This document shows, in pieces, positions 1-16,441 of a stretch of DNA of 33,677 nt. The notes beneath the pieces are model-generated. The model saw nothing but the letters and a program-made list of their open reading frames with translations, ran no database searches and had not been told where the DNA came from. This stretch comes from Myxococcota bacterium (GTDB lineage Bacteria; Myxococcota_A; UBA796; UBA2385). Position 1 is the stretch's first letter, and every line of letters starts with the position of its first letter. The translations under genes were made by a program, and so were the position numbers. The stretch is from contig JBIJDH010000044.1 of assembly GCA_044344255.1 (NCBI GenBank), forward strand, positions 1-33,677. Direction: 5' to 3'.

Positions 1-32
1 GACCGACGGCACTACGCCTTTTGCGGGGCAGT

Positions 33-81
33 CCCCCTCCGGTGCCGATGCGGCACCACCTCCCCCATCGGATGGGGGAGG
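33..81. repeat. Double-hairpin REP-like palindromic element
   Basis: Two adjacent inverted repeats: GGTGCCG-ATG-CGGCACC (41-57) and CCTCCCCCATC-G-GATGGGGGAGG (59-81), preceded by CCCCCTCC. The layout resembles intergenic REP-like elements; it could also terminate an upstream gene. Confidence 0.6.
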
Positions 82-137
82 CTGGAACCAGCGGCGCGAC
101 CAGCGTTCTCGACTTTTGGACCTGCCGGACCATCATC

Positions 138-164
138 CTCTGCGTCCTCTGCGCACTCTGCGGT
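138..164. repeat. Three tandem 9-bp units with a CTCTGCG core
   Basis: CTCTGCGTC CTCTGCGCA CTCTGCGGT read directly from the sequence upstream of the halogenase. Confidence 0.7.
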
Positions 165-221
165 GGCATTCCACGGAACCCTCTCCAACGCCGACTTTGT
201 CTGACCGAATGGAGCTCCATC

Positions 222-2006
222 ATGAGTGATTCCGCCGCTCGTCATTACGACGTCATCATCCTCGGCTCCGGCATCGGCGGCTCGATCCTGGCGTGTATCC
301 TCGCCAAAAAGGGCGTCTCCGTGCTCATGGTGGAGGAGCTCGCCCACCCGCGGTTCACCATCGGCGAGTCCCTCATCCCCGAGACGGGCATCCGCCTCCG
401 CATCCTCGCCGAGAAATACGGCGTGCCCGAGATCGGCTGGCTCGGCAACTTCTACCAGCTGCGCGACAATGTGAGCTCGAATTGCGGCGCCAAGCGCGCC
501 TTCAGCTTCATGTACCACAAAGAGGGGAGCCAGCATGTCCCCGAACAGACGAACCAGCTCCCGACGCTGACCCCGCCCTTCGGCCCAGACTCCCACCTCT
601 TCCGGCAGGACACCGACGCCTGGCTGGCCTCCGTGTCCACCCTCTATGGGGCCCACTTCCAGCAGCAGGTGAAGGTCGAGGGGCTGCGCTTCGAGGCCGA
701 CCGGGTCGTCATGAAGGCCGCCGGAGGGGTGGAGGTCTCCGCCGACTTCCTCATCGACGCGGGCGGGATGCGCAGCCATGTGTCCACCCTCTTCAACCTC
801 CGCGACACCACCCCGCGTTTTAAGACCGACACCCGCACCCTCTACACCCACTTCATCGGCCTGCCCGCCGCCGACTGCCTCCTCCCCGAGGGTGGCGCGG
901 GGCTCCCCTCTCCGCTGGGCCAGGGGACCATGCACCACGTCTTTGACGGGGGTTGGATGTGGATCATCCCCTTCAACAACCACCCGGAGGCCACGAACCC
1001 GCTCACGAGCGTCGGCGTGATGCTGGATCGGCGAAAGCACCCCAAGGCGGATGGGCCGCCGGGGGAGGAATTCCAGCGCCTCATCAGCCGCTATCCCAGC
1101 ATCGCGCGTCACTTCGCGCGGGCCACCCCGATTCGACCCTGGATCGGGAGCGGCAGGCTCCAGTATTCCTCACCCCGCACCATCGGGCCCCGCTTCATCC
1201 AGCTCCCCCACGCCGCCGCCTTTGTGGACCCGCTCTACTCGAGCGGCATGTCGGTCCTCACCGTCGCCATCGACCTCATCGCGGATGCCCTCCTCCCCGC
1301 CATCGCCGAGCGGCGCTACGACGAGGAGCGCTTCGAGCTCGTCGATACGGTCGTTCAGAAGGGCTTCGACCACTACGATCAGGTCGTGAGCCGCTCGTTT
1401 GACTCCTTCGCCGACTACGACCTCTGGAACGCCTGGAACCGAAACTGGGTGTTGGGCAATTTCCTCGGCACCTTCGGCGCCCTGTCCCTGCTCGTGAATT
1501 TCCTCTCCACCGGCGACCGATCCTGGCTCGACCGCACCACGGAGCCCCACCGGATCGGTGTGCTCGGCAGCCACCTCCCCGAGGTGGTGGCGACCATGCA
1601 CGCCAACGCGGAGGAGGTGGGGGCGGCCACCCGGGGCGAGCGGAGCCCCCGAGAGGCGAGCGATCGGATCTTCGCCCGGCTCGGCGCCCTCGACTTCTTG
1701 CCTCCGTATATGGGCTTCGGTGACCGCGACCAGCGGAGCCAGGCCGTCTTCACGCTGCCGGCGGGGGTCCGCCACGTGCTCTGGTATCGGTACAACGCGC
1801 CCCGGTCTTGGAAGGAGTATGCAGACCTGCCGCTCCTGACCTTCGCCTCGGAGACCGCCTCGTTCGTGGGCGGTGCCTGGGGAGAGGGCCTACGACGCTC
1901 CTGGTCGGTCTTTCGAGACGTCTTTTCCGCGGGCAACCGGGATTGGAGACACAACCCCGCGGCGCTCCGGGCCCATGATCTGATCGAGCCCCCGAAGGCG
2001 AAATAG
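222..2006 (+). CDS. Flavin-dependent halogenase (tryptophan halogenase family, PrnC-like)
   Basis: FAD motif GSGIGG, HPRFTIGES, candidate catalytic Lys in CGAKR, halogenase signature WMWIIP (WxWxIP) and FVDPLYSSG. ATG at 222 follows GGAG at 211-214, so it is preferred over the ORF-track start at 21. Confidence 0.9.
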   Translation: MSDSAARHYDVIILGSGIGGSILACILAKKGVSVLMVEELAHPRFTIGESLIPETGIRLRILAEKYGVPEIGWLGNFYQLRDNVSSNCGAKRAFSFMYHKEGSQHVPEQTNQLPTLTPPFGPDSHLFRQDTDAWLASVSTLYGAHFQQQVKVEGLRFEADRVVMKAAGGVEVSADFLIDAGGMRSHVSTLFNLRDTTPRFKTDTRTLYTHFIGLPAADCLLPEGGAGLPSPLGQGTMHHVFDGGWMWIIPFNNHPEATNPLTSVGVMLDRRKHPKADGPPGEEFQRLISRYPSIARHFARATPIRPWIGSGRLQYSSPRTIGPRFIQLPHAAAFVDPLYSSGMSVLTVAIDLIADALLPAIAERRYDEERFELVDTVVQKGFDHYDQVVSRSFDSFADYDLWNAWNRNWVLGNFLGTFGALSLLVNFLSTGDRSWLDRTTEPHRIGVLGSHLPEVVATMHANAEEVGAATRGERSPREASDRIFARLGALDFLPPYMGFGDRDQRSQAVFTLPAGVRHVLWYRYNAPRSWKEYADLPLLTFASETASFVGGAWGEGLRRSWSVFRDVFSAGNRDWRHNPAALRAHDLIEPPKAK

Positions 2007-2009
2007 GCC

Positions 2010-3452
2010 ATGTCTTCCACGCCCACGCCCACGCCCACGCCCACGCCCACACCTACGCCCTCAGCCCGACCCCGCTGGCATCAGGTCCATCAGGACCTGC
2101 CGCGGGAGCATGGACACGAGCCGCTGCGTGTTGAAGGGGTGGTCCCGCCCGGGCTCCGGGGCACCCTCTATCGGAACGGCCCCTCCCGCTTCCAGGTGGG
2201 CGGGGAGCCCTATGTCCACGCCTTCGATGGCGACGGCGCCATCACCGCGATCCGCCTCGGCGAGGGGCCGCCCACCGGCGCCTGCCGCCTGCTGCGCACC
2301 GACTGGTTACGGGCCGAAGAGGAGGCGGGGCACCACCTCTATCGGTCCTATGCCCAGCTCGGGGTGGGCTGGAGGCGCTGGCTGGCTCCGCCCAAGAACC
2401 AGGCGAACATCGCGGTGCTCGACTGGGGTGGCAAGACCTGGGCGCTGTGGGAGTTCGGACTCCCCGTCTCCTTCGATCCCGAGACCCTCGACTGTAAGGG
2501 CCCCGAGAACATCGGCGGGATCATCGGCTCCGCCTTCGGGGCCCACCCGCATCGTCAGGGCGGCCGTATCCTCCAGACCGGCCTCCGTTTCGGGCCACGC
2601 TTCTCGCTCGACCTCTTCGAGCTCCGCGACCGGATGCGGAAGATCGGCAACATCCCGCTCCCCTTCCCCACGCTCATCCACGACTTTGCGGCCACTGAAA
2701 AATCCATCATCCTCTTCTGTCCGCCCCGCCACCTGCATCTCCGCCCCCTCGCCCTCGGACAGCGCCCCTTCATCGAGGACCTCCGCTGGGAGCCCGAGCG
2801 GGGGACCGAGATCATCATCGTCTCCCGCGAGGACACCGACCACGTCGTACGTTTCACGGTGCCCGCCTTCTTTCTCTGGCACTTTGTCAACGCCTGGGGA
2901 GACGGGGAGGAGCTCGTCGTGGACTACATCCGCTACGACGACGACGCCACCGACGCCTGGTTCGGCCGCGCCCCTTGGGCCGTCGAGCCGGTGCCGGCCT
3001 CCCGGCTGATGCGGGCGCGTATCCACCCGGGGCGAGAGACCTTCACCGAGCGGGTGCTGAGCGACCGGCCCCTGGAATTCGGGAGCATTCACCCCGACCT
3101 CGCGGGCAAACCCTATCGGGAGTGTTTCGCGCTCTCCTGGACCGCCTCCCGGGCCGCAACCGGGGGCCCGCCACAGCTTGCCCGATACGATGTCGAGACG
3201 GGCGCGGTGGAGGCGATAGACCTCGGCCCCGACACCTTCCCCGCCGAACCCCTCCTCGCCCCCCGTGAAGGGGGCGGCGCCTGGGTGCTCAGCCTCGTCT
3301 ACGACGGGAGCGTCGACCGGAGCTACCTCGCCGTCCTCGACAGCGCGCGCTGGGGGGAGCCGCCGGTAGCGAAGCTCTGGTTCGACCACGCGATCCCGCT
3401 CACCTTCCACGGCGCCTGGGTGGGAAGTGAGCAGGCGGCGCCGGGGGCCTGA
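2010..3452 (+). CDS. Carotenoid cleavage oxygenase / lignostilbene dioxygenase family protein (RPE65 fold)
   Basis: VEGxxPxxLRGTLYRNGP and HAFDGDG motifs; four Fe-ligand His (AHP, IHDF, WHF, FHG); EP motif. Starts 3 bp after the halogenase stop. Confidence 0.92.
   Translation: MSSTPTPTPTPTPTPTPSARPRWHQVHQDLPREHGHEPLRVEGVVPPGLRGTLYRNGPSRFQVGGEPYVHAFDGDGAITAIRLGEGPPTGACRLLRTDWLRAEEEAGHHLYRSYAQLGVGWRRWLAPPKNQANIAVLDWGGKTWALWEFGLPVSFDPETLDCKGPENIGGIIGSAFGAHPHRQGGRILQTGLRFGPRFSLDLFELRDRMRKIGNIPLPFPTLIHDFAATEKSIILFCPPRHLHLRPLALGQRPFIEDLRWEPERGTEIIIVSREDTDHVVRFTVPAFFLWHFVNAWGDGEELVVDYIRYDDDATDAWFGRAPWAVEPVPASRLMRARIHPGRETFTERVLSDRPLEFGSIHPDLAGKPYRECFALSWTASRAATGGPPQLARYDVETGAVEAIDLGPDTFPAEPLLAPREGGGAWVLSLVYDGSVDRSYLAVLDSARWGEPPVAKLWFDHAIPLTFHGAWVGSEQAAPGA
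2019..2060 (+). repeat. Hexamer tandem repeat (ACGCCC)n encoding (TP)7
   Basis: Five perfect ACGCCC units, then ACACCT and ACGCCC, at the oxygenase N-terminus. Confidence 0.9.
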
Positions 3453-3491
3453 GCGGCGCGGCGGGACGGAGCCCGCCACCGCAGCCCCTCG

Positions 3492-3542
3492 GCTGTGCGC
3501 ACAGCGCCTGCGCAGCGCACGCACAGCGCCTACACAGTGCGC
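3492..3542. promoter_or_regulatory. Candidate upstream activator sequence (enhancer) for a sigma54 activator
   Basis: 14-bp perfect palindrome GCTGTGCGCACAGC (3492-3505) overlapping four 11-bp tandem units GCACAGCGCCT/GCGCAGCGCAC/GCACAGCGCCT/ACACAGTGCGC (3499-3542), about 100-150 bp upstream of the -24 box. Confidence 0.6.
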
Positions 3543-3643
3543 ACCGGGTGGGGCGCCATTACAACGGAGCGGGCGACCACCCATTGAGGCCAAACCGACG
3601 ATAAGCACCTTTTATCGGTACGCTTTCTTATCGAGCCCAGCCC

Positions 3644-3659
3644 TGGCACGCGCGTTGCA
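3644..3659 (+). promoter_or_regulatory. Sigma54 (RpoN) -24/-12 promoter
   Basis: TGGCACG-CGCG-TTGCA matches the consensus TGGCACG-N4-TTGCW exactly. It is intergenic, preceded by an AT-richer tract, about 47 bp before an RBS-bearing ATG and next to a GAFTGA activator gene. Confidence 0.9.
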
Positions 3660-3705
3660 ATGGACCTCTGCACCGGAATCCACCGGGTCCCCAACGGAGC
3701 TCATC

Positions 3706-3765
3706 ATGAAGACCAAGACCAACGTGAAGGCCGGCATCTTCGATCGTCCCAGCCTGCCCGTCTAA
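3706..3765 (+). CDS. 19-aa small peptide MKTKTNVKAGIFDRPSLPV, putative precursor or signal peptide
   Basis: GGAG at 3696-3699, ATG at 3706, TAA at 3763-3765; almost all codons end in G/C. It is the only credible ORF between the sigma54 promoter and a hairpin. Confidence 0.8.
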   Translation: MKTKTNVKAGIFDRPSLPV

Positions 3766-3781
3766 GGCGATCGTCTCTCCA

Positions 3782-3808
3782 AGGGGCGGGCGGCGACGCC
3801 CGCCCTTC
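3782..3808. terminator. GC-rich hairpin, probable terminator between convergent genes
   Basis: Stem GGGCGGGCG / CGCCCGCCC (3784-3792 / 3797-3805) with a GCGA tetraloop, 18 bp after the peptide stop. The U-tract is weak. Confidence 0.65.
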
Positions 3809-3871
3809 TGCGTTCACCCTCCATCTCCCACGCTTCACCCCGCGCTCCGCAGCACGGTTCGGGACCCGAAG

Positions 3872-6493
3872 CTACCCGAGGCGGGCGCCCAACACCGTCG
3901 AGAGCTGCCCCGGCAGCGCCGAGAGCCAGGTCGCTCGGTCCCGCTCACCGAGCGCCAGGGCGAGCTCACGGACGAGGGGCCCGTTCTCGGGGAACTCATA
4001 GAGGCGCGCACAGTATTGCGTGGGGCGGACGCGCAAGAGGTAGCCCTGGAGCCGGGCCGCGGCCGGCTCCCCGGCGCGCGCAAGGAGGGACCGCCGCAGG
4101 TGGGCGCTGAAGTCGCCCTCGCGGAAGTGAAGCACGATCGTGTTCAACAGTGCCCGCTCCTCGGGCTCCAACGCCCAGACCCGCGCCATGGGCGCCTCGG
4201 TGGGCTCTGCGGCCTCGGTCGGCACCCTGCCGGTCTCGGCCTGGACCGCGAGGCGGTCGGCGTCGGGATCGTCGAGCGCGGCGGCGTGACGGGCGCGGGC
4301 CTCGGTCCCCGCGTACACCCCGACCCGCAGCCGCCGGAGGCCCTCTCGGTCGAGCTGCACCGCCAGCTCCACCGCCTCACCGCAGCGGGTAAGCTGCCCC
4401 GCCACGAGCGCCTCTGGCTGGCCGCCCGGGCGACGGACCGTGGTGGGCGCGGAGGCGTCCGGGAGCAGGCCGACCTCGAGCCCGCTCCCCTGACGTCGGA
4501 TCGCCACCTGGACACGAGAGAGCGCAGCCTCGGTCGGGATCGAGAGGAAGGCCGGCTCTCCCGCCCCGAGGAGCGCCCGCACCCCCGCCACCCGTGCCGC
4601 GCCGCGTCGATCCTCGGGGCCGCTGTACAGGTCGTCCCAGCCCCGAGCGCGGCCAAGGACCACCACCCCGTCGGGGAAGCTGTGATCGAGGCCCTGACCC
4701 TGTTGAAGGAAGCGCACGAGGACCGACCGATCGGACGAGGGCAGCCGGTGGGGGAGGACCCGCGCCACGGCAGCCCGATCGATCGGGCCCTCGACGGCGT
4801 CGAGCAGCGCCTCCATGTCGGCGCGCAGGCCGGTCAGCTCGGCGTCCCACTCCTGCGCCTCCAGCGCTCGCAGCGCGTCGGCCCGGACCACGCGCTCTCT
4901 CGCAAAGCACCCCACCGCGTGGCGGATGGAGGAGGCGCCGCGGGCGCCCAAAGACGGCACCGCGAGGCGAACGGCCACCGGCAGATCGCAGGGGCCCTCG
5001 CTGGTGACGAAGGTAGGGCCCCTGCGGATGGTCAGTCGGTCGAGGTGCTGCGGCTCCAGGGGGCGACCGCGCTCGCTGAAGGCCGCCGCCCGCTCCATCA
5101 CCCCCCACAGCTCGCGGACGTTCCCGGGCCACGGCCAGGCCAGGAGGAGCTCCGCGGCCGCGGGAGCGAGGTGGACAGAGTCGGAGTCGCCCCGCGCGGC
5201 TTGGAGGAAGCGGCGAGCGAGGAGGAGGATGTCCTCGGGGCGCTCCCGGAGCGGGGGGATCGCCAGGATGAGGGCGTTGAGGCGGTGGAGGAGGTCGAGC
5301 CGGAAGGTGCCGCGGGCGACCATCGCCTCGAGGTTGGCGTGGGTGGCGCCGATGATCCGGACGTCGACCGCGACCCCCTTCTCGGCGCCGACCGGCCGGA
5401 CGATCCGCTCTTGGAGCACGCGGAGGAGCTTCGCCTGGACGCCGACGTCGAGGTTGCCGAGCTCGTCGAGCAGGAGCGTGCCGCCCTCCGCCCGCCGGAA
5501 GGCCCCCGGCCGCTCGGCGTTGGCCCCGGTGAAGGCGCCGCGCACGTGGCCGAAGAGCTCGCTCTCGACGAGGTCGCGGGGGATCGCGGAGAGGTCCACC
5601 GCCTCGAAGGGGCCGCGGCGGCCGCTGACGCGGTGGATCGCGCGCGCGAACACCTCCTTTCCGACGCCGGGCTCCCCGAGGAGCAGCACGGGCGCGGACG
5701 AGCGGGCGAGGCGGGCCGCGTCGGAGAGGACCCGACACAGCGCAGGGCTCTCCCCAAGGATCTCGGAGAAGGCCGGATCAGCGGGGCGCAGGGCCGCCGG
5801 CCCGGGGCGCCACGTTCGCGGAGGGGCCTCCGGGCGGAGGCGGCGGCGGAGCGCGGCGAGGTCATGCTCGTCAAGGCGAGCGGCCTCGCGGTAGAGCGCC
5901 CAGGCGTCGGGCGTGGGGGGCTGGTTGGCGGCGTCGTCGAAGGGGGCCCCGTCTCCCCGCTCCTGCCAGGCCAGGCGCACCAGCGAGGCCTTTCCCGCGC
6001 CGGCCGGGCCCGTCAACAGCACCGAGGCGCCCGCGCGGGCGTGGGCCGACAGGCTCCTTCGCACCCCGGCTAGACCGGGGTCGGTGGCCACGAGATGGAG
6101 GCCGTCGAGCTCCAGCAGCTGCCGGGCCAGACCGTCGGGGAGGGGGAGCTCCCGGGGGCCCGCGACCACGAGCCGAACGTCGGCCCCCGCGAGGGGCGAC
6201 ACCGTGGGTACATCGACCGCGGAGAAGTGAAGCCAGCCGCCCTCCGCGCGCGCGATGAGCTCGGCCAGGGCGTCACGGGGCAGCAGAGCGAGCGGCGCGG
6301 CGACCTGGACGAGCGGCCGCCACTCCTCCACGGTGGCGAGCCACCGACGGTAGAGCCAGCGGACGACCACCGCCGCAGGCACGCCGACGAGCCCCGGCAC
6401 CCGGAGCGGGCCCGGCGCCGCGAGGGCCTCGGTGAAGGCCCCCCAAACCGCGGGGGGAAGGGATGCCGCGGGATCGGGCTGCAGAGGGAACAT
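3872..6493 (-). CDS. Sigma54-dependent enhancer-binding protein with atypical multi-AAA+ and FHA-like architecture
   Basis: Intact core: GEPGVGKE, ESELFGHVRGAFTGA, LLLDELG, QAKLLRVLQE, FRLDLLHRL, WPGNVREL. Start placed at ATG 6493 behind a purine-rich GGGAAGGGA; start is uncertain. Confidence 0.88.
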   Translation of the reverse strand: MFPLQPDPAASLPPAVWGAFTEALAAPGPLRVPGLVGVPAAVVVRWLYRRWLATVEEWRPLVQVAAPLALLPRDALAELIARAEGGWLHFSAVDVPTVSPLAGADVRLVVAGPRELPLPDGLARQLLELDGLHLVATDPGLAGVRRSLSAHARAGASVLLTGPAGAGKASLVRLAWQERGDGAPFDDAANQPPTPDAWALYREAARLDEHDLAALRRRLRPEAPPRTWRPGPAALRPADPAFSEILGESPALCRVLSDAARLARSSAPVLLLGEPGVGKEVFARAIHRVSGRRGPFEAVDLSAIPRDLVESELFGHVRGAFTGANAERPGAFRRAEGGTLLLDELGNLDVGVQAKLLRVLQERIVRPVGAEKGVAVDVRIIGATHANLEAMVARGTFRLDLLHRLNALILAIPPLRERPEDILLLARRFLQAARGDSDSVHLAPAAAELLLAWPWPGNVRELWGVMERAAAFSERGRPLEPQHLDRLTIRRGPTFVTSEGPCDLPVAVRLAVPSLGARGASSIRHAVGCFARERVVRADALRALEAQEWDAELTGLRADMEALLDAVEGPIDRAAVARVLPHRLPSSDRSVLVRFLQQGQGLDHSFPDGVVVLGRARGWDDLYSGPEDRRGAARVAGVRALLGAGEPAFLSIPTEAALSRVQVAIRRQGSGLEVGLLPDASAPTTVRRPGGQPEALVAGQLTRCGEAVELAVQLDREGLRRLRVGVYAGTEARARHAAALDDPDADRLAVQAETGRVPTEAAEPTEAPMARVWALEPEERALLNTIVLHFREGDFSAHLRRSLLARAGEPAAARLQGYLLRVRPTQYCARLYEFPENGPLVRELALALGERDRATWLSALPGQLSTVLGARLG

Positions 6494-6564
6494 TCCCTTC
6501 CCTACCACGGGATGCACCCGAGCCGGGCATGCGGCAATGGGGGGCGGAGATAGGCTGTGAAGAG

Positions 6565-6594
6565 CCGGCGCGCATCGGCGCGCATCGGCGTGCA
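6565..6594. promoter_or_regulatory. Three 10-bp tandem repeats in the divergent activator/kinase intergenic region
   Basis: CCGGCGCGCA TCGGCGCGCA TCGGCGTGCA; one helical-turn periodicity. Regulatory role is inferred. Confidence 0.45.
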
Positions 6595-6618
6595 CCCCAC
6601 GCCTCCCCCATCCACCCG

Positions 6619-9600
6619 ATGTCGCACCCTCTCCATCCCGCGCCACCCGATTCGGCCCCGCCCGAGCCGGCACCGATCGAGGCGGCGCTGACCGACCTCG
6701 CTGCTCCCTCATCGCCTCGGCGGTACCAGGGGGACTCCGGGCTCGATCGGGTGATCGGGGAGGGCGCCTTCGGGAGGGTGCTCCTGGTCTTTGACGCTCA
6801 GCTCGGCCGAGAGGTCGCCTTGAAGGAGCTCCGCGCCGCGGCCGCGGCGACGTCCGATTCATCCCCCAGCGAGGACACCGTGGGGTGGGCCTCGGCGCCC
6901 GCCGAGCCGCCCCCCGAGGTCGTCGCCCGCTTCATCCGGGAGGCGCGCCTGACCGCGCGGCTGGAGCACCCCGGCATCGTGCCGGTCCACGAGATCGGCC
7001 GTCGCGGCGACGGGGCCTACTACTACACGATGAAGCCGGTGCGCGGCCGGACCCTCGCGGTCGCCCTCCAGGAGGCAGGCACGCTCCAAGGCCGCCTCGG
7101 CCTGCTCGAGGCCTTCGTCGACCTTTGCCAAGCGGTCGCCTACGCCCACAGCCGCGGGGTGATCCACCGCGACCTCAAGCCGCAGAACGTGATGGTGGGG
7201 GCCTTCGGCGAGACGGTCCTCCTCGACTGGGGGCTGGCCCTCGACCGGAGCGCGGAGCACCCCGAAGACACGGACGCGCAGGCGGGGGTGGCCGTCGGCA
7301 CGCCCTCTTACATGAGCCCCGAGCAGGCCTGGGGGCAGCACGACCTGATCGACGAGCGCTCCGACGTCTGGGGGCTGGGGGCGATCCTCTACGAGCTGCT
7401 CACCGGCAGCGCCCCCTACCGGGGCCCGACCGCCGAGGGTGTCATCGCCCAGGTGCGCCGGGGCCCTCCGCCGCCCGCCCGGGCTGCCCAATCGAGCGTC
7501 CCGGCCGAGCTCTCCGACGTCGCGGCGAAGGCGATGCAGGTCGATCCGGCGGAGCGGTACGGCGACCCCTCCGCCCTGGCCGCCGACATCCGGGCCTGGC
7601 GGGCCGGCGAGCGGGTCTCGGCGCACCACTACGGCCTCGCGGAGCGGGTCGGGCGGCAGGTCGCCCGCCACGGCGGCAGGCTCGCGGCGCTGGCGGCGGG
7701 GCTCACCCTCCTCCTCGCGGTCAGCGCGGTGCTCACCGCCCGCGTGGCGGCCCAGCGCGATCGCGCCGTGCGGGCGGAGGTGACGGCGGCCGCGAAGGGA
7801 GAGGAGGCGCGGAGGCGCCTCGCCGACGCCCTGATGGCCAAGGCGGAGGACGCCGTCGTCGCGGGCTCCTCCGCCGAGGCGCTGGTGTACGCCTCCGACG
7901 CCCTGGCGATCCGAGAGGACCCCCGAGCGCGGGGGGCGCTGATCGCCGCAGACAGCGGGCTCCTGCGGCAAGTGGTGTGGTCGGCGCGCACCGCGGGCAC
8001 CCCCACAGGCTTCACGTGGAGCCCCACCGCCGGCCTGTCCGTGCTGGAAGAGGACCGCCTGGAGCGCTGGAGCGCCGACGGCGAGCCGCTGCCGACCCTC
8101 CGGGGGATGCCGCCGGTCCAGACGGGTGGGGCCGTGCAGTGGTCTCCCACCGGCGCGCTCCTCGCGGTCGGAGGATGGGGCGGGGTGCGGGTGTTCGACC
8201 CCGACGAGCGGGTGGACGGCCCAATCCAGACGCTCCCCGCGCCGGTCACACCGCTCTCGCTGGCCTGGCTCGACGACGTCCGCCTCGTCGCGGCCGACGA
8301 CGGCGGGGTGGTCGGCGTCTGGAGCGCCCGGACGGGGGCGCGGCTGGGGGAGCGGCGGGACCAGCCGGGCGCCATTCGGGCGCTCGCGCTGGCCGGAGGC
8401 TCGGTCGTCTCGGCCTCGAACGACCACTCGATCGAGGTCTGGGACCCCTTGAGCGGCCGCCAGACGGTGCGCCTTCAGGACGAGGGCGTCGGCGCGATCG
8501 CGCTGGCGGTGACCCCGGACCACCGACAACTCGCGGCCGTGGGAGAGGTGCGCGGCGGAGATGGGCGCCTGCGGGTGTGGGACCTCGAGAGCGGCGCGCT
8601 GACGGCCTCGGTGCTCGGCCACCGGGCCGAGGCGGCCGACGTGCAGGCCTCCCCGGACGGCCGCTGGCTCGCCAGCAGCAGCATCGACGGGACGCTCCAC
8701 CTCTGGAGCCTCCCCGGCGTGACGGAGGCCGCCACGCTTCGCCTGCCGGCCGAAGGCTTCCAGCGCTGCGCCTTCTCTCCCGATGGGCGGCGCCTCGCGA
8801 CGGTGGGCAGGGCGGGGGTGCTGCGGGTGTGGGCGATCGACCCCGAGAACGGGGGGACACCGCCGATGCACCTCCCCGCCGCGGTCAACGACGTGGCCTG
8901 GTCACCCGACGACCGCGCCCTGGCGCTGGCCATAGAGACCGGCGAGCTCCGCTTGATCGACCTCGTCCGCAGATCCAGCCAGACCCTCACCTCGGGGCGC
9001 GGCTCCCTCGGCGTCGCCGCCTGGCTCGACGCCCGCTCCATCCTGGTCCACGGCGGGGAGCAGCCCCCCGAGATCGTGCGGCTCGACGGGGAGCGGCTCC
9101 CCTTGTCGCCAGAGCCGTGGTGGGCGGCGCGCAGCCTGTCTCCCAGCCGTCGCCTCCTCTTCACCACCCGCCATCGGGAGGCGCGGGCGAGCGTCATCGA
9201 GGTGGCGACCGGCGTCGGGCGGCCGCTGAACTGCCCCGCGCTGGCGCCAGAGGGGGCGTGGTTGCCCGGGGAGGCGGCGTTGCTGGTGACGGGGAAACAA
9301 GGCGAGGGCGTGTACCGAGCGGCGGCCGCGGGCGGGGCCTGCGAGCGCGTCGGCCCGGCGGAGCTGGCCTGCGACACCGTCGCGGTGAGCCCCGATGGGC
9401 AGACGATGGCCTGCGCCCGGACGGGGGAGGTCTCCCTCTATCGGCTGTCCCCCTTCACCCCGGCGGGGGCGCTGGCCTCGCCGGGGCGGGTGACCGCCGA
9501 GCTCCGCTGGACCCCCGACGGGCGCCGCATCATCGGCGTCGACTGGTCCGGCCATGCCAGCGTGTGGGCGACCGACGGCCAGCTCCTCGCGCGCTGGCAG

Positions 9601-9792
9601 GCCCACTCGAACCGCATCTGGCACCTCGCCCTGAGCGCCGACGGCCGTCGTATTGCCACGGCCTCCGCCGATCGATCGGCGCGGGTCTGGGTCCTCGACG
9701 CCCTGGACGAAGCGCGGGAGAGCGCCGCGGTGCGGGCCCTGCGGATGACCGGCCTGGAGGTCGTCGACGGTGAGCTCGTAGCGAAGCGGTGA
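6619..9792 (+). CDS. Hanks-type Ser/Thr protein kinase with transmembrane helix and C-terminal WD40 repeats
   Basis: IGEGAFG, VALK, HRDLKPQN, DWG, GTPSYMSPEQ, SDVWGLG; hydrophobic LAALAAGLTLLLAVSAVL; many WD40 units (SASNDHSIEVWD, GH...SPDGRWLASSSIDGTLHLW, ATASADRSARVW). Start uncertain. Confidence 0.93.
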   Translation: MSHPLHPAPPDSAPPEPAPIEAALTDLAAPSSPRRYQGDSGLDRVIGEGAFGRVLLVFDAQLGREVALKELRAAAAATSDSSPSEDTVGWASAPAEPPPEVVARFIREARLTARLEHPGIVPVHEIGRRGDGAYYYTMKPVRGRTLAVALQEAGTLQGRLGLLEAFVDLCQAVAYAHSRGVIHRDLKPQNVMVGAFGETVLLDWGLALDRSAEHPEDTDAQAGVAVGTPSYMSPEQAWGQHDLIDERSDVWGLGAILYELLTGSAPYRGPTAEGVIAQVRRGPPPPARAAQSSVPAELSDVAAKAMQVDPAERYGDPSALAADIRAWRAGERVSAHHYGLAERVGRQVARHGGRLAALAAGLTLLLAVSAVLTARVAAQRDRAVRAEVTAAAKGEEARRRLADALMAKAEDAVVAGSSAEALVYASDALAIREDPRARGALIAADSGLLRQVVWSARTAGTPTGFTWSPTAGLSVLEEDRLERWSADGEPLPTLRGMPPVQTGGAVQWSPTGALLAVGGWGGVRVFDPDERVDGPIQTLPAPVTPLSLAWLDDVRLVAADDGGVVGVWSARTGARLGERRDQPGAIRALALAGGSVVSASNDHSIEVWDPLSGRQTVRLQDEGVGAIALAVTPDHRQLAAVGEVRGGDGRLRVWDLESGALTASVLGHRAEAADVQASPDGRWLASSSIDGTLHLWSLPGVTEAATLRLPAEGFQRCAFSPDGRRLATVGRAGVLRVWAIDPENGGTPPMHLPAAVNDVAWSPDDRALALAIETGELRLIDLVRRSSQTLTSGRGSLGVAAWLDARSILVHGGEQPPEIVRLDGERLPLSPEPWWAARSLSPSRRLLFTTRHREARASVIEVATGVGRPLNCPALAPEGAWLPGEAALLVTGKQGEGVYRAAAAGGACERVGPAELACDTVAVSPDGQTMACARTGEVSLYRLSPFTPAGALASPGRVTAELRWTPDGRRIIGVDWSGHASVWATDGQLLARWQAHSNRIWHLALSADGRRIATASADRSARVWVLDALDEARESAAVRALRMTGLEVVDGELVAKR

Positions 9793-10784: not shown

Positions 10785-11378
10785 ATGCCGCCCGCGTCGC
10801 CCTATCACCCCGTCCTCCTCCTCCCCGCCGGGGCGCCGGTGCTCGATCTCCGCGCGGGGTACGGCGAGCCCGCCCCGGGGGCGCCGCCCAGCCCCTGGTC
10901 GATCGGCCGCTACGATGAGGACCGCGGCGTCTACACCACCGCCCTCTTCACCGCCGGCCCGGCGCCGCGCACGGTGCACATGGGCATCGACCTCGGCGGC
11001 CCCGTGGGGGAGCCCGTCCACGCCTTCGGAGACGGCGAGGTGCTCTTCGCGGGCGTGAACCCGGCGCCCGGTGATTATGGCGCCGTGATCGTGCTCGCCC
11101 ACACCTTCGAGGGGCGGCCGCTCTACGCCCTCTATGGCCACCTCTCTCACGCCAGCCTGCGGCAGAGCCCGGTCGGCCGCTGTGTGCGAGGCGGCGACAC
11201 CCTCGGCTGGCTCGGAGACCCGGACGAGAACGGCGGCTGGCCGCCCCACGTCCACCTCCAGCTCTCCTGGGCGCGGCCCGCCACCCACGATCTCCCCGGC
11301 GCGGTGAGCCGGGCGGACCGTGAGGAGGCCCTCCGCCTCTATCCAGACCCTCGCCTCGTGCTGGGAGCGCTCTACTGA
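10785..11378 (+). CDS. M23-family metallopeptidase
   Basis: Zn motifs HMGID (HxxxD), LYGHL and PPHVHLQ (HxH); GAGG RBS before ATG 10785; no signal peptide evident. Confidence 0.88.
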
Positions 11379-11379
11379 C

Positions 11380-12477
11380 ATGCTCATCTTCGCCCTGCTC
11401 GCCCTCCTCTCCTGTCGCCCGCCGGCCTCCATCCCCGCCTTGGACCCTTGGCTCTGTCGCCCCGGCCGGAATGACGCCTGCGCCCTCCCCCTGCCCATCC
11501 TCCGCTGGGAGCCGGACGGCCGCCTCGTCCAGGCTGACCTCCCGCCCCCGGCGGCGGCGCCGACGGTGGACTGCTTCTACGTCTATCCCACCGTCGATCA
11601 CCGCCTGCGCGTCGGCAACCACACCGACCTCAGCGACCTCGACACCGAGCGCGCCGTCACCCGCGCCCAGGCCGCCGCCCTGTCGACGGTCTGCAATGTG
11701 TGGACCCCGGTCTATCGGCAGGTCACCATCGGCTCCTACCTGCGCCCCGACCAGGCGCTCGGGGCCTTCACCCTCGCCTGGAGCGACGTGCGAGCGGCCT
11801 GGGACCGCTTCCAGTCCGAGGCCGACCCCGGCCACGACCTCGTGCTCATCGGCCACTCTCAGGGGGCCCAGTGGGTGACGAAGCTGCTCGCCGAGGTGGT
11901 GGAGCCGGACCCCGCCCTGTCCGCCCGCCTCGTCGCCGCCTATCCGATCGGCTGGGGCGTGGGCACCGCGGCCGGCTCTACGACCGGGGGCTCCTTCACC
12001 CGCCTCCCCCTCTGTTCGGATCGGAGCGCCCGCGGCTGCGTGATGGCCTATCGCAGCTACGCCGACGGGCACGACCTCCCCGCCCGCGGCGGTGTGGTGA
12101 AGCAGGGCGACACGCTCGCCTGCGTCAACCCGGTGGAGCCATCACCCATCGGCGCCGAAGACGCCGCCTGGCCCATCCGAGCCGCCCAGCTCGGCAGCGG
12201 CGGCCGATTGACCGACCTCCCGCCCGGGCTGCCGGAGGGCTGGCGCGGCTTCATCCTGGTCGAGGGCGCCTATCAGGCCCGCTGCGTACGCGGCTCCGAC
12301 GGCAACGCCGGCCTCGCCGTCCGCTGGGCCCCCGCCGAGGGCGACCGCCGCACCGACCTCGCCGAGCTCGCCACCGGCCGCTACGACGGCCCGATGGGGG
12401 CCCACGTGCTCGACCTCCAGTTCGGGCTCTGGGACATCGTCGAGGACATCCGAGCCCGCTCAGCCATCCCCCGCTGA
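11380..12477 (+). CDS. DUF3089-like alpha/beta hydrolase lipoprotein
   Basis: Lipobox-like LALLSC; VDCFYVYPT, PVYRQ, nucleophile elbow GHSQG, CVNP and a C-terminal HVLD. Starts 1 bp after the M23 stop. Confidence 0.82.
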   Translation: MLIFALLALLSCRPPASIPALDPWLCRPGRNDACALPLPILRWEPDGRLVQADLPPPAAAPTVDCFYVYPTVDHRLRVGNHTDLSDLDTERAVTRAQAAALSTVCNVWTPVYRQVTIGSYLRPDQALGAFTLAWSDVRAAWDRFQSEADPGHDLVLIGHSQGAQWVTKLLAEVVEPDPALSARLVAAYPIGWGVGTAAGSTTGGSFTRLPLCSDRSARGCVMAYRSYADGHDLPARGGVVKQGDTLACVNPVEPSPIGAEDAAWPIRAAQLGSGGRLTDLPPGLPEGWRGFILVEGAYQARCVRGSDGNAGLAVRWAPAEGDRRTDLAELATGRYDGPMGAHVLDLQFGLWDIVEDIRARSAIPR

Positions 12478-13722
12478 GCCGGGTCCCGCCGGGACGCCCG
12501 CCACGGTGAGCGCCGGCACGATGGGCCGGGTCAGCCACCAGTGGGCGATGAGCAAGGGGGAGAGGGCCGGCAGCGGAAGGCTCTCCCCGAGCTCCCCCAC
12601 CTCGACGATGAGGAGCGCGAGGTGATGATAGGCGAGGAGGGCGCCCACATGCACCTTCTCGCCCCGCGTGTATCCACGCCAACCGGCGAGCATGAGCCCG
12701 AGGCCGACGAGCGTGGGCAGCATGTCGTAGTGGTGCAGGTGCGGGTTGATAAAGGTGGAGACCGCGAGGCCGAGGCCAAGCGCGGGGGCGGTGGGGAGCC
12801 GCCGCCCCCGCCAGACGCTCACCGCGACGAGCAGGCCGGCGGTGATCCAGCCCTGAACATCGGCGCGGGTGCCAATCCCGAAGGCCCGGCGAAAGACGCT
12901 CAGCCCGTCGAACTGCAGGTGGAGTGGATAATCCGGCAGCGTGTCGAGCCGCCCGAGCTGCGGCATCAGGCGCAGCCAGTCCAGCCACACCCCGGGCCCG
13001 GTGAAGGGCAGGCTCAGGAGGAGCGTGCTGGCCGCGCCGATCGCCATCCCGAGCGCCATCCGCCAGCCCCCGACGAGCAGCGGGAGCCAGGCCACCGCGA
13101 CCAGCCAGCTCGGCTTGACCGCGAGCAGGCCGAACAAGAGCCCGCCGAGGACAGACCACCGTCGGGCCAGCGCCAGCCCCCCGAGGAGCAAGACAACCAG
13201 CGTGGCGACGCCGTTCTGGCCCAAGACATAGCTATAGAAGAAGGGCGGGAAGAGCAGGATGAGCAGGCTGCTCGCGAAGAAGCCGGGCCCGCCGAGCCGC
13301 TTCAGCAGGGCGGCGGCGCCGAGCGCGAGGGTGGTGTTCAGCAGGGCCTGAAATCCCGCCGCGAAGGGGAGGAGGAAGGAGCCGAGGCCTGAATAGAGCA
13401 GGGCCGCCGAGGGCGGATAGAAGAAGACCCCGATCAGGTAATTCCGGGACGCCCAGAGCGAGGGGGGGACGCCGAGGGGAAAGGCCCGCGCCAGCACCTC
13501 GGACTGAGCCGTCACGTCGTAGAGCTCCGCCCAGCGCCCCTCGCTCGCCAGCCGGCCCCCGATCCAGAGGTGCACGAAGTCGCCGTTCCGCTGCGCCGCG
13601 ATGACCGTGCAGAAGGCGTAGGCCACCACCACCGCCACGAAGAGCGCGAAGATGGGGATCGAGGGCCCGCCTGCGACCGCGCTCCCCGCAGGCTCAGTAG
13701 CGGGGGAGGCGGGGGTCGACAT
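12460..13722 (-). CDS. Glycosyltransferase family 87 (DUF2029) membrane protein
   Basis: GDF..LW..G, FFYPP, LGQN, LAVKP and PHLHHYD motifs with many hydrophobic helices. Confidence 0.8.
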   Translation of the reverse strand: MSTPASPATEPAGSAVAGGPSIPIFALFVAVVVAYAFCTVIAAQRNGDFVHLWIGGRLASEGRWAELYDVTAQSEVLARAFPLGVPPSLWASRNYLIGVFFYPPSAALLYSGLGSFLLPFAAGFQALLNTTLALGAAALLKRLGGPGFFASSLLILLFPPFFYSYVLGQNGVATLVVLLLGGLALARRWSVLGGLLFGLLAVKPSWLVAVAWLPLLVGGWRMALGMAIGAASTLLLSLPFTGPGVWLDWLRLMPQLGRLDTLPDYPLHLQFDGLSVFRRAFGIGTRADVQGWITAGLLVAVSVWRGRRLPTAPALGLGLAVSTFINPHLHHYDMLPTLVGLGLMLAGWRGYTRGEKVHVGALLAYHHLALLIVEVGELGESLPLPALSPLLIAHWWLTRPIVPALTVAGVPAGPGSAGDG

Positions 13723-14029
13723 CGAGGCTGTACCGGTCGATGCCGCCGGCGAGGTTGTAGAGCTCGTCGAAGCCCTGGTCGGCGAGGAAGCGGGCGGCGC
13801 TCATCGAGCGAACGCCGTGGTGGCAGATGCAGACCGTGGGCCGATCGGGGTCGAGCTCCCCCACCCGTCGCGCCAGGGCGTGCAGGGGGATGTGGGTGAT
13901 TCCCGGGAGCGCGGCGAGCTCGATCTCCACGTCTTCGCGGACATCGAGCAGCACGAGGGGCCGGCCCGCGGCGAGGGCGGCCTGGAGGGCGGCGGGGAGG
14001 GCGACGGGGGAGAGCTGCTGGATGGCCAT
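13694..14029 (-). CDS. Single-domain rhodanese (sulfurtransferase)
   Basis: LLDVRE, active loop CHHGVRS, NLAGGID and a C-terminal VDPRLPRY. GGAG before ATG 14029. It is the C-terminal part of ORF 13694..15358. Confidence 0.9.
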   Translation of the reverse strand: MAIQQLSPVALPAALQAALAAGRPLVLLDVREDVEIELAALPGITHIPLHALARRVGELDPDRPTVCICHHGVRSMSAARFLADQGFDELYNLAGGIDRYSLDVDPRLPRY

Positions 14030-14971: not shown

Positions 14972-15019
14972 TGGCCACGGAAAAAGGCTGGCTCGAGGAC
15001 CCCGCGTTACGCGCCCCCG

Positions 15020-16441
15020 ATGCAGATCCCGAGCGAAGACACCTGGACCGCCCTCTTCCGCGCCTTGGATCCAATGCGGCCGCTGCCCCTCGGCGAGCCC
15101 CTGCGGGAGCAGTTTGTGGAGCCGGAGTACAGCCCCGTTCGAAAGGTGGGCGCGGTGCTCGCAGGCTGGGAGCGCGCCGCCCGCAGCGGTGAAGCCGGGG
15201 CCCCACCCAAGATCCTGTTTTGCGGCGCGCGGGGGAGCGGCAAGTCCACCCACCTCCGGCGGATGGTCCTCGACCTTCGCGAAAATTGGCAGGTGGTCTT
15301 CGCAGACCTCGCCCCCGTCCTGCCTCCCCGCATCGCGACCGTCCAGCTCGTCGCCCACATCGGCCTGCTCCTCCTCGCCGAGCTCTCACTCTGGGCGCCC
15401 GAGGCGTCGCGCAAGGCGGAGGTCGACGAGGCCGCGCGGGACTCCGGCTTTCAAGAGAGCCTCGCCCGCTTCGCGGACGCCTTGGGCCCCCTGGACGAGC
15501 TCGTGGAGGCGGCCCTCCCGCTGCTCGTCACCGCGTCGATCGCCGGTCCGCAGGCGGTCGCCGCGGCGGCCGGCGTGAAGGCGGGCGCGAGCGTCCTCGG
15601 AAGGGCCTGGGACCTCGGCGCGCGATTGCTCCCCTTAAAGAAGCTCAGCCTCTCGAAGAAGCTGGCCGGGCGGCTCGGCGGCGACCAGGAGAGGGACGCC
15701 CAAGACCTGGTCGGGTCGGTGAACCAGCTCGCCCGAACGCTCAGCGCCAAGACCGAAAAGCGAGTGTTTGTCGCGCTGGACGGGCTGGATCGCATGCGCA
15801 GCGCCGAGGAGGCGACCGCCGCCTTCGACGACGTGGAGCTCCTCGGCGACCTCGACCTCGCGCTCGCGATCTCCGGGCCCACCTCCCTCCGCCACGATCC
15901 TCGTTTCGCCTCCCTCCGAACGGACATCGTGGTCACGCCTCTGTTCAACTTTCCCGTCGTGACCCGCGATGGAGAGCCGGATGAGCGCGGGATCCTCGCG
16001 ATGCGCAGCCTCGTCGAGAAGCGCCTCGGTCCGAAGCTGTTCCCGCTCCTGGACGAAGACGCGCTGCGCCTCGCGATCCGCAGCAGCTCGGGAAACCCCC
16101 GCGAGCTGCTCGGGATCCTCCGCGACGCACAGGGCCACGCCGAGCGGGATGGACGGGCCACCGTCTCGCTGGCCCAGGTAGAGCGGGCATGCAAGGAGAT
16201 CCGACTCACGATCCAACAGCCCATCAACCGGGCGGACTATGCGCTGCTGGGGCAAGTCTTGGAGAGCCAGCAGCCCGGCCCGAGCCCCCGGGACGGCGAG
16301 CTGCTCTATGCCAACCTCATCGTCTGCTACCCGAACGAAAACAGCTGGTGTCGGCCGAATGAGCTGCTCGTGCCCGGCATCCGACAGCACATCCAGCTCG
16401 AGCGGCGACTGACCCAGGCCCGGGATCGGGAGAATGAGTAG
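15020..16441 (+). CDS. P-loop ATPase (AAA/STAND-related)
   Basis: Walker A GARGSGKST, Walker B VALDGLDR, sensor-like SSGNPRELL. Confidence 0.85.
   Translation: MQIPSEDTWTALFRALDPMRPLPLGEPLREQFVEPEYSPVRKVGAVLAGWERAARSGEAGAPPKILFCGARGSGKSTHLRRMVLDLRENWQVVFADLAPVLPPRIATVQLVAHIGLLLLAELSLWAPEASRKAEVDEAARDSGFQESLARFADALGPLDELVEAALPLLVTASIAGPQAVAAAAGVKAGASVLGRAWDLGARLLPLKKLSLSKKLAGRLGGDQERDAQDLVGSVNQLARTLSAKTEKRVFVALDGLDRMRSAEEATAAFDDVELLGDLDLALAISGPTSLRHDPRFASLRTDIVVTPLFNFPVVTRDGEPDERGILAMRSLVEKRLGPKLFPLLDEDALRLAIRSSSGNPRELLGILRDAQGHAERDGRATVSLAQVERACKEIRLTIQQPINRADYALLGQVLESQQPGPSPRDGELLYANLIVCYPNENSWCRPNELLVPGIRQHIQLERRLTQARDRENE

Follow-up and report, generated by a model that had tools for sequence, protein, structure and literature searches.

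What switches on a gene of only 19 codons, and what could its product do? The question was raised by positions 3492-9792 of the window, the whole stretch of 33,677 nucleotides that was analysed here from a Myxococcota bacterium. In this unit, an upstream element, a promoter, a ribosome-binding site, a 19-codon ORF and a hairpin converge on the gene of a sigma-54 activator, and a kinase gene is divergent from that of the activator. The original prediction had described such a unit, with repeats, a sigma-54 promoter, an RBS, the short ORF, a hairpin, a GAFTGA activator and a divergent kinase, and all of these elements were present. We consider it likely that the convergent FHA-fold activator turns on the 19-codon gene and that the activator would in turn be under the control of the divergent receptor Ser/Thr kinase, and give this reading a probability of roughly 0.55.

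The candidate upstream activating element (3493..3544, + strand) contained two GTGCGCAC palindromes, at 3495 and 3537, inside repeats of an 11-nt period, and preceded the promoter by about 100-150 nt. Pairs of GTGCGCAC spaced 10-60 nt occurred genome-wide only here and upstream of a paralogous peptide gene on C69, and the 17-mer starting at 3493 was likewise found at two genome sites only, here and at the C69 peptide locus. The element was shared by the two IFDRPS copies and was absent elsewhere in the genome. In the alignment of the peptide loci, the element, the promoter and the 5'UTR were conserved in patches. The sigma-54 (-24/-12) promoter TGGCAC-GCGCG-TTGCA (3644..3659, + strand) matched TGGCAC-N5-TTGC(A/T) exactly and with fixed spacing, and a scan of 3300-4000 for sigma-70-like sites gave none. 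It had been predicted as a consensus promoter and is kept at the paralogues; the 8.18 Mb genome has 51 exact TGGCAC-N5-TTGC sites in all, both strands counted, and this is one of them. Three of the four family peptide genes of this genome carried an exact site 62-99 nt upstream, and with only 51 such sites genome-wide the linkage of promoter and peptide gene was more than chance. By chance alone, a span of 16.6 kb should hold about 0.1 exact promoters. Moreover, rpoN was present in the host, as shown by a Sigma54_DBD match on C36 of 208 bits, over the cut-off.

The RBS GGAG (3696..3699, + strand) was located 6 nt before the ATG, and the surrounding GGAGCTCA(T/C)CATGAAG was conserved in the C69 and C5 paralogues. 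The ORF, MKTKTNVKAGIFDRPSLPV (3706..3765 with the stop included, + strand), consists of a conserved 10-residue leader and a 9-residue core. Its third codon positions were G or C in 16 of 18 cases, compared with a proportion of 0.82-0.94 in the called genes. A GC-rich hairpin with an 11-bp stem (3782..3807) lay between the convergent peptide and activator genes, with a dG of -25.6 kcal/mol and a z of -2.36 relative to shuffled sequences. A consensus terminator scan did not call this hairpin because its U-tract is weak; it is a possible two-way terminator for both convergent genes.

Judged from its sequence relatives, the ORF is a genuine gene, and the family to which it belongs is widespread but un-annotated so far. 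The hallmark of the family is the N-terminal MKTKTxVKAG, followed by C-terminal cores that vary, in peptides of 14-45 residues. Its members occurred in Myxococcota, Acidobacteriota (Bryobacterales loci included) and other phyla, frequently in tandem arrays; the window has one copy. The C69 and C5 paralogues, as well as copies in relatives, were recovered by DNA similarity alone, and a fourth copy of the own genome was found on C51. The leader-pattern search retrieved 43 genome loci and 79 metagenome loci, while the control with the pattern read backwards gave 0 matches in 154 genomes. The conservation of the leader among these loci is partly by construction; the loci are also phylogenetically non-independent, and several of the metagenome loci are near-duplicates. 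The core FNPQPDPPG was common to the C5 copy and Minicystis rosea, where it occurred four times, so that cores are kept across genera. Pfam and NCBIfam gave no over-cut-off match for 11 family members (21-367 aa, longer relatives included), and no Rfam family matched the locus.

The neighbourhoods of the family were then compared. Among 48 family loci, a kinase lay within 6 kb in 16, and within 300 bp in 8, while sigma-54 AAA+, C39 and HlyD genes were each found in 9. In the metagenome set, 31 loci had a length of 5 kb or more; a kinase was found in 10 of them, AAA+ in 5 and C39 in 9. Proximity of C39 means within 6 kb in the genome set and within a fetched flank of up to 7 kb in the metagenome set. 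In other phyla, too, family peptides recurred next to receptor kinases, activators with FHA domains and sigma-54 promoters. Clustering of the neighbours placed kinases, activators, ABC exporters and HlyD in the top clusters. One locus (L170) showed the same triad as the window: five peptide genes accompanied by a kinase with PD40 and by an activator of the order FHA-GAF-AAA+-HTH_8 in convergent orientation. Each single partner was missing at most family loci: 32 of the 48 had no kinase within 6 kb, 22 had none of kinase, activator and C39, and a sigma-54-like site as defined by the search pattern was absent at 38.

No C39 peptidase ABC transporter was found in the window, in agreement with the original prediction that it holds no exporter. 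The own genome encodes a single C39 peptidase ABC exporter. It is accompanied by HlyD, lies on contig C54 and adjoins large repeat proteins, not peptides. Its C39 domain was 63% identical to an array-linked acidobacterial one. This C39 type was present in 23 of 154 genomes, including all 5 genomes of the order in which a peptide was seen.

A conserved leader, a variable core, tandem copies and a C39 exporter are typical of RiPP and bacteriocin precursors (PMC3140520). The peptide could thus be a RiPP precursor or a small antagonistic peptide, the production of which is regulated by the kinase and activator in response to another cue and which the producer does not sense. In favour of this explanation, a KAGG-core-NHNQT unit is repeated in some relatives, which makes them multi-cassette precursors, and Cys was found in 7 of 64 unique cores. 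However, no recurrent modifying enzyme appeared in the neighbour clusters of the family loci, and most cores had 4-10 residues and no Cys. In addition, 12 of 14 peptide-linked kinases carried TPR, WD40 or PD40 repeats behind a single membrane segment, and such ligand-binding domains after the membrane segment of array-linked kinases argue against a product that is not sensed. We regard this explanation as unlikely, though it survives best among the alternatives.

The kinase gene of the window (about 6619..9792, + strand, start codon uncertain) encodes a receptor-type Hanks Ser/Thr kinase with a WD40 region of ~680 aa (Pkinase E 3.7e-36, WD40 E 2.3e-33). One hydrophobic 19-mer, at residues 355-373 counted from the ATG at 6619, followed the kinase domain, and the WD40 region is predicted to be periplasmic or extracytoplasmic. 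The earlier description of a membrane Ser/Thr kinase with WD40 agrees with these predicted features. Between the kinase and activator genes, the divergent intergenic region (6494..6618) carries GCGCGCATCG-type repeats.

The activator is an 873-aa sigma-54 enhancer-binding protein (3872..6493, - strand, start ATG at 6493) with a Sigma54_activat match (PF00158, E 6.9e-61) and the GAFTGA motif. In the predicted model (pLDDT 86), an N-terminal P-loop-like domain with weak AAA+ resemblance was followed by the AAA+ domain with GAFTGA, a lid, an FHA-fold domain and a C-terminal helical domain. VIA on the predicted structure gave Z 9.0-10.0 and an rmsd of 2.0-2.9 A over 97-108 residues for the FHA fold, with matches to MDC1, CT664, EmbR, DgcB and Rad53; the FHA domain of EmbR was among the best (Z 9.8, rmsd 2.0 A, 97 residues). 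Foldseek also found the FHA fold and listed IRF/SMAD MH2 as well, and the FHA leads from the Atlas stayed below its bar. The Pfam FHA model PF00498 had no match to the activator at E <= 0.01. The FHA-like character that had been predicted for this protein was thus recovered as a fold by structure prediction, C-terminal to the ATPase, but not as a domain call by Pfam. Across 21 activator homologues, GR was invariant, and in SR the R was invariant and the S nearly so, while the window activator has Gln in place of the His of the SxxH motif. The GR and Ser-x-x-His loops belong to the phosphothreonine pocket of FHA domains, and the domain appears to retain the Arg and Ser of this pocket.

Since FHA domains or FHA folds and kinases are the commonest neighbours of the family and the window itself is without an exporter, the peptide may alternatively stay inside the cell, where the kinase would phosphorylate Thr3 and Thr5 and the FHA-fold domain would recognise them. 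The peptide would then be a small phospho-adaptor or competitor within the pathway of kinase and activator. Positions 3 and 5 were always Thr or Ser in the 79 retrieved peptides, which is partly due to the construction of the pattern. On the other hand, C39 peptidase exporters with HlyD stand beside the arrays at 9 of the 48 and 9 of the 31 loci, conserved residues give way to variable ones precisely at Ala-Gly, where position -4 is hydrophobic as in a leader cleavage site, and the variable C-terminus would have no obvious role. An intracellular adaptor therefore appears improbable.

The linkage of activator and kinase was also examined beyond the window. Among the activator paralogues of the own genome, 4 of 5 lay no more than 12 kb from a Ser/Thr kinase, and for three of these the distance was at most about 3 kb, against a kinase background of ~0.16 per locus, which was calculated from 49 kinase matches and applies to the own genome only. 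In related genomes, a kinase was found at 8 of 20 loci of activator homologues, and the family peptide at 0 of 20. Of the synteny that had been expected for activator homologues, the link to a kinase thus stood in paralogues and relatives, whereas the link to a family peptide did not extend to the relatives. One own-genome activator paralogue drives another ORF, as do the homologues of relatives whose first ORF was read, and these are mostly larger ORFs. The output of the activator family is not always a peptide.

These observations bear on whether the adjacency in the window is fortuitous, in which case another activator would drive the peptide gene and the kinase-activator pair would control other genes. 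On C69, the paralogous peptide gene shares the upstream element but has no activator or kinase nearby, and the genome holds 22-32 AAA+ activator matches. Furthermore, neither HTH_8 nor another HTH was detected in the window activator by Pfam, and a PDB profile search, in which the C-terminal helical domain was part of a longer query, matched the lid only. No DNA-binding domain was recognised, so binding of the upstream element by this protein is unsupported by domain evidence. Against a fortuitous adjacency, 8 of the 20 loci of homologues and 3 of the 5 paralogues in the own genome had a sigma-54-like promoter close to the activator gene, a paralogue on C52 repeats the layout with a convergent sigma-54 target and a divergent kinase, and an exact promoter is rarely expected by chance in such a span. 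Mere coincidence is accordingly a poor explanation, and the chain from kinase through activator to peptide is supported by context. It is very improbable that the ORF is untranslated and yields a short non-coding or antisense RNA that targets the convergent activator gene at its 3' end. A short transcript, ending at the hairpin 106 nt from the activator stop, would be expected, and Rfam gave no match, but it is the protein that is conserved across phyla (in-frame stops, an invariant leader, a good RBS) and third-position G/C is near that of called genes.

For the preferred reading, four steps are proposed. The activator would bind the paired GTGCGCAC palindromes and activate sigma-54 RNA polymerase at 3644-3659. 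Its FHA-fold domain may read a phosphothreonine of the kinase, which would gate the ATPase of the activator. The leader MKTKTNVKAG could be cut after Ala-Gly by the C39 exporter of C54, releasing IFDRPSLPV outside the cell. Finally, the peptide might act as a signal, possibly sensed by the predicted periplasmic WD40 region of the kinase, which would close a positive loop; this is the least supported of the four steps. We infer export, Ala-Gly cleavage and WD40 sensing of the peptide, and the window gene likely encodes a secreted signal. More tentatively, and with the odds against it, the MKTKTxVKAG peptides as a whole might be autoinducers of a cross-phylum system of signalling between cells, in which a peptide of 4-10 residues would be exported by C39 transporters and bound by the periplasmic TPR or beta-propeller domain of a Hanks receptor kinase; an FHA-bearing sigma-54 activator, recruited by phosphothreonine, would then induce the peptide gene.

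If this autoinducer reading were true, it would represent peptide quorum sensing without histidine kinases in diderm soil and freshwater bacteria. To our knowledge, peptide signalling in diderm bacteria is poorly documented, and few ligands are known for the many Hanks kinases that Myxococcota and Acidobacteriota have. The family, with genes of 14-45 codons that are covered by no curated model, offers a testable case in which receptor kinases and FHA-type sigma-54 activators are paired with tiny peptides predicted to be secreted. In their predicted mature form the peptides could readily be synthesised, being so short, and cultured hosts exist (Nannocystis, Minicystis).

Among known systems, the family resembles the double-glycine peptides exported by C39 transporters (class II bacteriocins, competence pheromones, NHLP/N11P) in its conserved leader, variable core and tandem genes. 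The boundary is likewise marked by two small residues, and position -4 is hydrophobic: V-K-A-G fits the double-glycine consensus at -4 and -1, with Ala at -2, and residue 11 was Gly in 28 of 79 peptides, making A-G-G. Comparable to the three-gene exporter of NHLP systems, genes for C39-ABC, a second ABC and HlyD are found next to family arrays in other genomes. In PMC3140520, the double-glycine leader consensus is M(R/K)ELX3E(I/L)X2 upstream, ending in (I/V)-X-G-(G/A), and the upstream part of the consensus as given there was not matched by MKTKTxVKAG. The family leader differs in being basic and 10 residues long, with no acidic/hydrophobic helix and with an invariant Ala-Gly. Its cores are far shorter than those of bacteriocins, and the exporter is unlinked from the window. 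The family-linked exporters best matched TIGR03794/03796/03797, below the curated cut-offs of these NHLP-type models (183-193 bits versus 853 for TIGR03796, and 27-50 versus 156).

Peptide signalling with a dedicated exporter and receptor is textbook knowledge in Gram-positive bacteria, as in the autoinducer circuits ComC/ComAB/ComDE and Agr. The parts shared with these circuits would be a small precursor, a peptidase/exporter, a membrane receptor kinase and an activator that would induce the precursor. In place of their histidine kinase there is a Hanks Ser/Thr kinase with WD40, TPR or PD40 domains, in place of the response regulator an FHA-type sigma-54 enhancer-binding protein, and the hosts are diderm Myxococcota and Acidobacteriota. 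A Ser/Thr kinase paired with an FHA-bearing transcription factor is known from PknH-EmbR of M. tuberculosis, and FHA enhancer-binding proteins are known from Myxococcus xanthus. In contrast, the FHA-fold domain of the window activator follows the AAA+ domain instead of preceding it, and the 873-aa protein has an extra N-terminal P-loop-like domain and escapes the Pfam FHA model. The acidobacterial array-linked activators, unlike that of the window, have the usual FHA-GAF-AAA+-HTH_8 order. As in PknH-EmbR, an activator with an FHA fold is encoded here beside a Hanks kinase.

All elements that the original prediction had listed for 3492-9792 were present in the sequence. In the window, whose source genome comprises 8.18 Mb in 83 contigs at 71% GC, an upstream element of repeats and palindromes (3493-3544, with GTGCGCAC palindromes at 3495 and 3537) was followed by a sigma-54 promoter, TGGCAC-GCGCG-TTGCA (3644-3659), an RBS, GGAG (3696-3699), the 19-codon ORF MKTKTNVKAGIFDRPSLPV (3706-3765) and an 11-bp GC hairpin (3782-3807, -25.6 kcal/mol, z -2.36), which was not called by a simple terminator scan. 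Four DNA runs showed seven differences over 3400-3900, all in one strain variant and too few for a selection test; the ORF, the promoter hexamers and the GTGCGCAC palindromes carried none of them. No RNA run was found for 3300-6700. Directly upstream, at 3-3452, a gene resembling flavin-dependent halogenases (Trp_halogenase, E 3.3e-11) and then an RPE65-family carotenoid oxygenase gene (E 4.4e-99) were found, and no tie of this pair to the peptide was seen at other family loci. Elsewhere in the window, two STAND-type NTPase genes (AAA_16, NACHT) lie side by side at 14972-18779, and 27441-28856 has 77-78% GC, strong AT and GC skew and no long ORF by a codon-bias gene caller.

Judged from its sequence, the ORF is a true gene and belongs to an unannotated peptide family with the leader MKTKTxVKAG. 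Two paralogues in the own genome, on contigs C69 (MKSKTNLKAGIFDRPSYQG) and C5 (MKTRTNLKSGFNPQPDPPGRH), and copies in related genomes were found by DNA similarity alone; a fourth own-genome copy lies on contig C51. Among the related genomes, G005 carries four family genes in tandem and G031 carries MKTKTNVHAGPIFMKYEGIKG. A degenerate leader pattern matched in 4 of the 154 genomes of the order, and the reversed pattern, used as control, in 0/154. A GC-biased leader pattern retrieved 43 stretches from one-genome-per-species contigs and 79 from metagenome contigs; leader invariance among these pattern-retrieved loci is partly by construction. The hosts of the 43 were Nannocystis, Minicystis and Polyangiaceae, together with Bryobacterales, Vicinamibacterales, Terriglobia, Thermoanaerobaculia and Pyrinomonadaceae, and one record each came from Chloroflexia, Acidimicrobiia, Planctomycetota and Eisenbacteria. 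No family member tested had a Pfam or NCBIfam match above cut-off. A degenerate IFDRP-core pattern gave 0 stretches in the metagenome contigs, a set that possibly lacks the own-genome records. Locus L065 was rejected as a family member, since Pfam shows its leader match to be a Biotin_lipoyl C-terminus; the metagenome loci L137, L141, L150-L152 and L195 look like this C-terminus and are, by resemblance only, probably false.

Of the 79 peptides in the 48-locus genome set, 75 had 14-45 residues (median 18), and at least two copies were present at 17/48 loci. The remaining 4/79 were longer multi-cassette forms with a repeated KAGG-core-NHNQT unit. Multi-cassette relatives of up to 367 aa occurred at loci L058, L068, L078, L081, L084 and L086, the unit being K-T-x-V-K-A-G-G, a short core and then N-H-N-Q-T-L-V-G; the repeated NHNQ motif suggests a second processing step there. 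Peptide cores are kept across genera. The core FNPQPDPPG is common to the C5 paralogue (one copy, G000:C5:33967) and the Minicystis rosea locus L093 (four in tandem), both with sigma-54-like promoters, and an ABC ATPase gene follows the C5 copy. Moreover, the core GLNVSGL was found at five Nannocystis or Nannocystaceae loci.

Exact TGGCAC-N5-TTGC sites occurred 51 times genome-wide on both strands. Such a site lay 62-99 nt upstream of three of the four own-genome peptide genes, against about 0.001 per gene expected by chance, and rpoN is present on contig C36. Pairs of GTGCGCAC 10-60 nt apart were found at only two places in the genome, the window and the C69 locus, and across the whole genome the 17-mer at 3493 was confined to the same two places. 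This common element would fit one dedicated activator for both IFDRPS genes. The stretch between element and promoter had diverged between the two loci in the alignment, and the common element could partly be a relic of duplication. Beyond the own genome, a sigma-54-like site preceded the peptides at 10/48 genome loci and 8/79 metagenome loci, which indicated that, by the pattern used, sigma-54 control is recurrent but not universal.

A GAFTGA activator convergent on the peptide unit, and a membrane Ser/Thr kinase with WD40 propellers divergent from that activator, had been noted originally, and both were recovered. The activator gene (3872-6493, minus strand, ATG start at 6493, 873 aa) is convergent with the peptide gene and encodes a Sigma54_activat domain (E 6.9e-61) with GAFTGA and an AAA lid. 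A conserved module makes up its last 387 residues and recurs in 26 of the order's 154 genomes as well as in five own-genome paralogues. In a model from 21 homologues (pLDDT 86), the AAA lid is followed by a beta-sandwich at residues 100-245 and then by a helical end. The sandwich had the FHA fold in VIA comparisons with MDC1, CT664, EmbR, DgcB and Rad53 (Z 9.0-10.0, rmsd 2.0-2.9 A, 97-108 aligned residues), and its Foldseek matches included IRF/SMAD MH2 domains. GR and SR motifs are kept through the activator family, and the family His is Gln in the window protein. The FHA-like character noted originally was upheld by the modelled fold; the Pfam FHA model did not match. No HTH or DNA-binding domain was identified in the activator by Pfam and profile search. 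A conserved GPxGxGK lies within the N-terminal 245 residues, whose resemblance to AAA+ is weak (Foldseek E 0.009-0.1).

The kinase gene, at about 6619-9792 and divergent from the activator gene, codes for a Pkinase domain (E 3.7e-36), a single hydrophobic segment and a WD40-repeat region of about 680 residues. The intergenic region between activator and kinase (6494-6618) contains GCGCGCATCG-type direct repeats as candidate autoregulatory sites; they are akin to GC-rich motifs that precede the C5 peptide promoter. A kinase domain was found within 12 kb of 4/5 own-genome activator paralogues: divergent in the window and on C52, directly downstream on C70, and about 2 kb upstream on C19. Because the genome has 49 kinase-domain matches, about 0.16 kinases were expected per locus, a background derived from the own genome alone. 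The C52 unit (G000:C52:70588-76146, outside the window) has the window's layout, with a sigma-54 promoter at 76146 on the minus strand, two convergent ORFs and a divergent kinase across the activator. These ORFs, of about 177 and 170 codons and driven by that promoter, have hydrophobic signal-peptide-like starts and run toward the activator gene. A second sigma-54-like site lies at C52 71718, upstream of the paralogous activator itself. Conserved synteny of activator homologues with kinase, promoter and peptide had been proposed as a check. At 20 homologue loci in related genomes, a kinase was in the fetched flank of 8 and a sigma-54-like site near the activator at 8, but a family peptide at none. 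The paralogue and homologue loci indicated that members of the activator family typically come with a kinase and a sigma-54 target nearby; in the window, this target appears to be the peptide gene.

To survey the family peptides elsewhere, all ORFs within 6 kb of the peptides at the 48 genome loci were clustered. Kinases ranked first and activators second, followed by ABC exporters and HlyD. Kinases were found at 16/48 loci (8 within 300 bp), sigma-54 AAA+ proteins at 9/48 (6 within 300 bp), FHA at 4/48, and C39 and HlyD at 9/48 each; any of kinase, AAA+ and C39 was present at 26/48. Of the metagenome loci, 31 spanned 5 kb or more, several of them near-duplicates, and the respective counts there were 10, 5, 5, 9 and 9, and 18 for any of the three. 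The loci behind all these counts are not phylogenetically independent. The neighbouring kinases carry TPR_12/TPR_10, WD40 or PD40 repeats, and a single membrane segment after the kinase domain in 12 of the 14 examined indicated a receptor-kinase topology. The array-linked activators were FHA-GAF-AAA+-HTH_8 (L068, L073, L074 and L170), FHA-AAA+-HTH_8 (L090), or GAF and AAA+ with no FHA or HTH_8 match (L086). At L170, the triad of the window recurs, made up of a PD40 kinase, five peptide genes and an FHA activator in convergent orientation. The metagenome locus L133 (1-14029) has seven peptide genes alternating with two TPR kinases, beside a HlyD and C39 exporter. It also carries a TrwC relaxase gene at 11317-14028, so the peptide/kinase/exporter system may sit on a mobile element. 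Another propeller-type sensor, a hybrid histidine kinase of 1500 aa that combines Reg_prop/Y_Y_Y propellers with an AraC HTH, adjoins four tandem family peptides and a C39 exporter at L012 (G005:C15, 4905-9410).

No exporter was found in the window by domain search, as had been noted originally. Only one C39 ABC exporter was present in the own genome, at C54:9610-15761 together with HlyD and a second ABC gene. Its neighbours are large repeat proteins, and its C39 domain has 63% identity to that of an acidobacterial exporter linked to an array. Within the order, 23 of 154 genomes had C39 domains of this type, among them all five where a family peptide was seen, and in G052 MRTKSRVRAGGDAWAG lies <1.5 kb from a C39 domain. 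In PMC3140520, the double-glycine leader consensus ends (I/V)-X-G-(G/A), which the family's conserved/variable boundary V-K-A-G matches in part only.

What is observed comprises the peptide gene with its family, its promoter and the element shared with the paralogue, the AAA+/GAFTGA core and FHA fold of the activator, the domains of the kinase and the recurrent linkage. We propose that the kinase would gate the activator via phosphothreonine and the FHA fold, that the activator would act at the 3644-3659 promoter, and that the C54 exporter would cut the leader after Ala-Gly, releasing IFDRPSLPV. This chain from kinase to activator to peptide, plus export, is given a probability of about 0.55. 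The peptide would then serve as a signal, with the WD40 domain of the kinase as its possible sensor; the closed autoinducing loop proposed originally is a tentative extension.

A RiPP or antagonistic peptide under control of the same kinase-activator pair is rather unlikely; it would share the exporter linkage, and no modifying enzyme was found in common near the orphan peptide loci (Nannocystis, Minicystis, own C5 and C69), whose neighbours are heterogeneous. An intracellular phospho-adaptor is improbable: it would suit a window free of exporters, and C39 genes recur beside the family. Chance adjacency of the peptide gene and the kinase-activator pair is equally improbable, given the sigma-54-like sites near the activator at 8/20 homologue loci and the layout of the C52 unit. 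A non-coding transcript is hardly credible, as the family is conserved across phyla as protein. No Rfam family matched anywhere in the window.

The literature searched described neither the MKTKTxVKAG family nor a sigma-54 circuit made of peptide, Hanks kinase and FHA activator; the accessible part of PMC12316311 mentions neither Acidobacteri, FHA, threonine kinase nor small peptide. The component parts of the proposed chain are already known kinds. Double-glycine-type precursors with C39 exporters are the known counterpart of the family peptides and their proposed exporters. The NHLP three-gene export system resembles these C39 exporters, but they score far under the NHLP cut-offs. Myxococcus has FHA-bearing enhancer-binding proteins, and pairs of a Hanks kinase and an FHA transcription factor are known, such as PknH-EmbR. 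The FHA domain of EmbR was among the top structural matches to the FHA fold of the activator in the VIA comparison.
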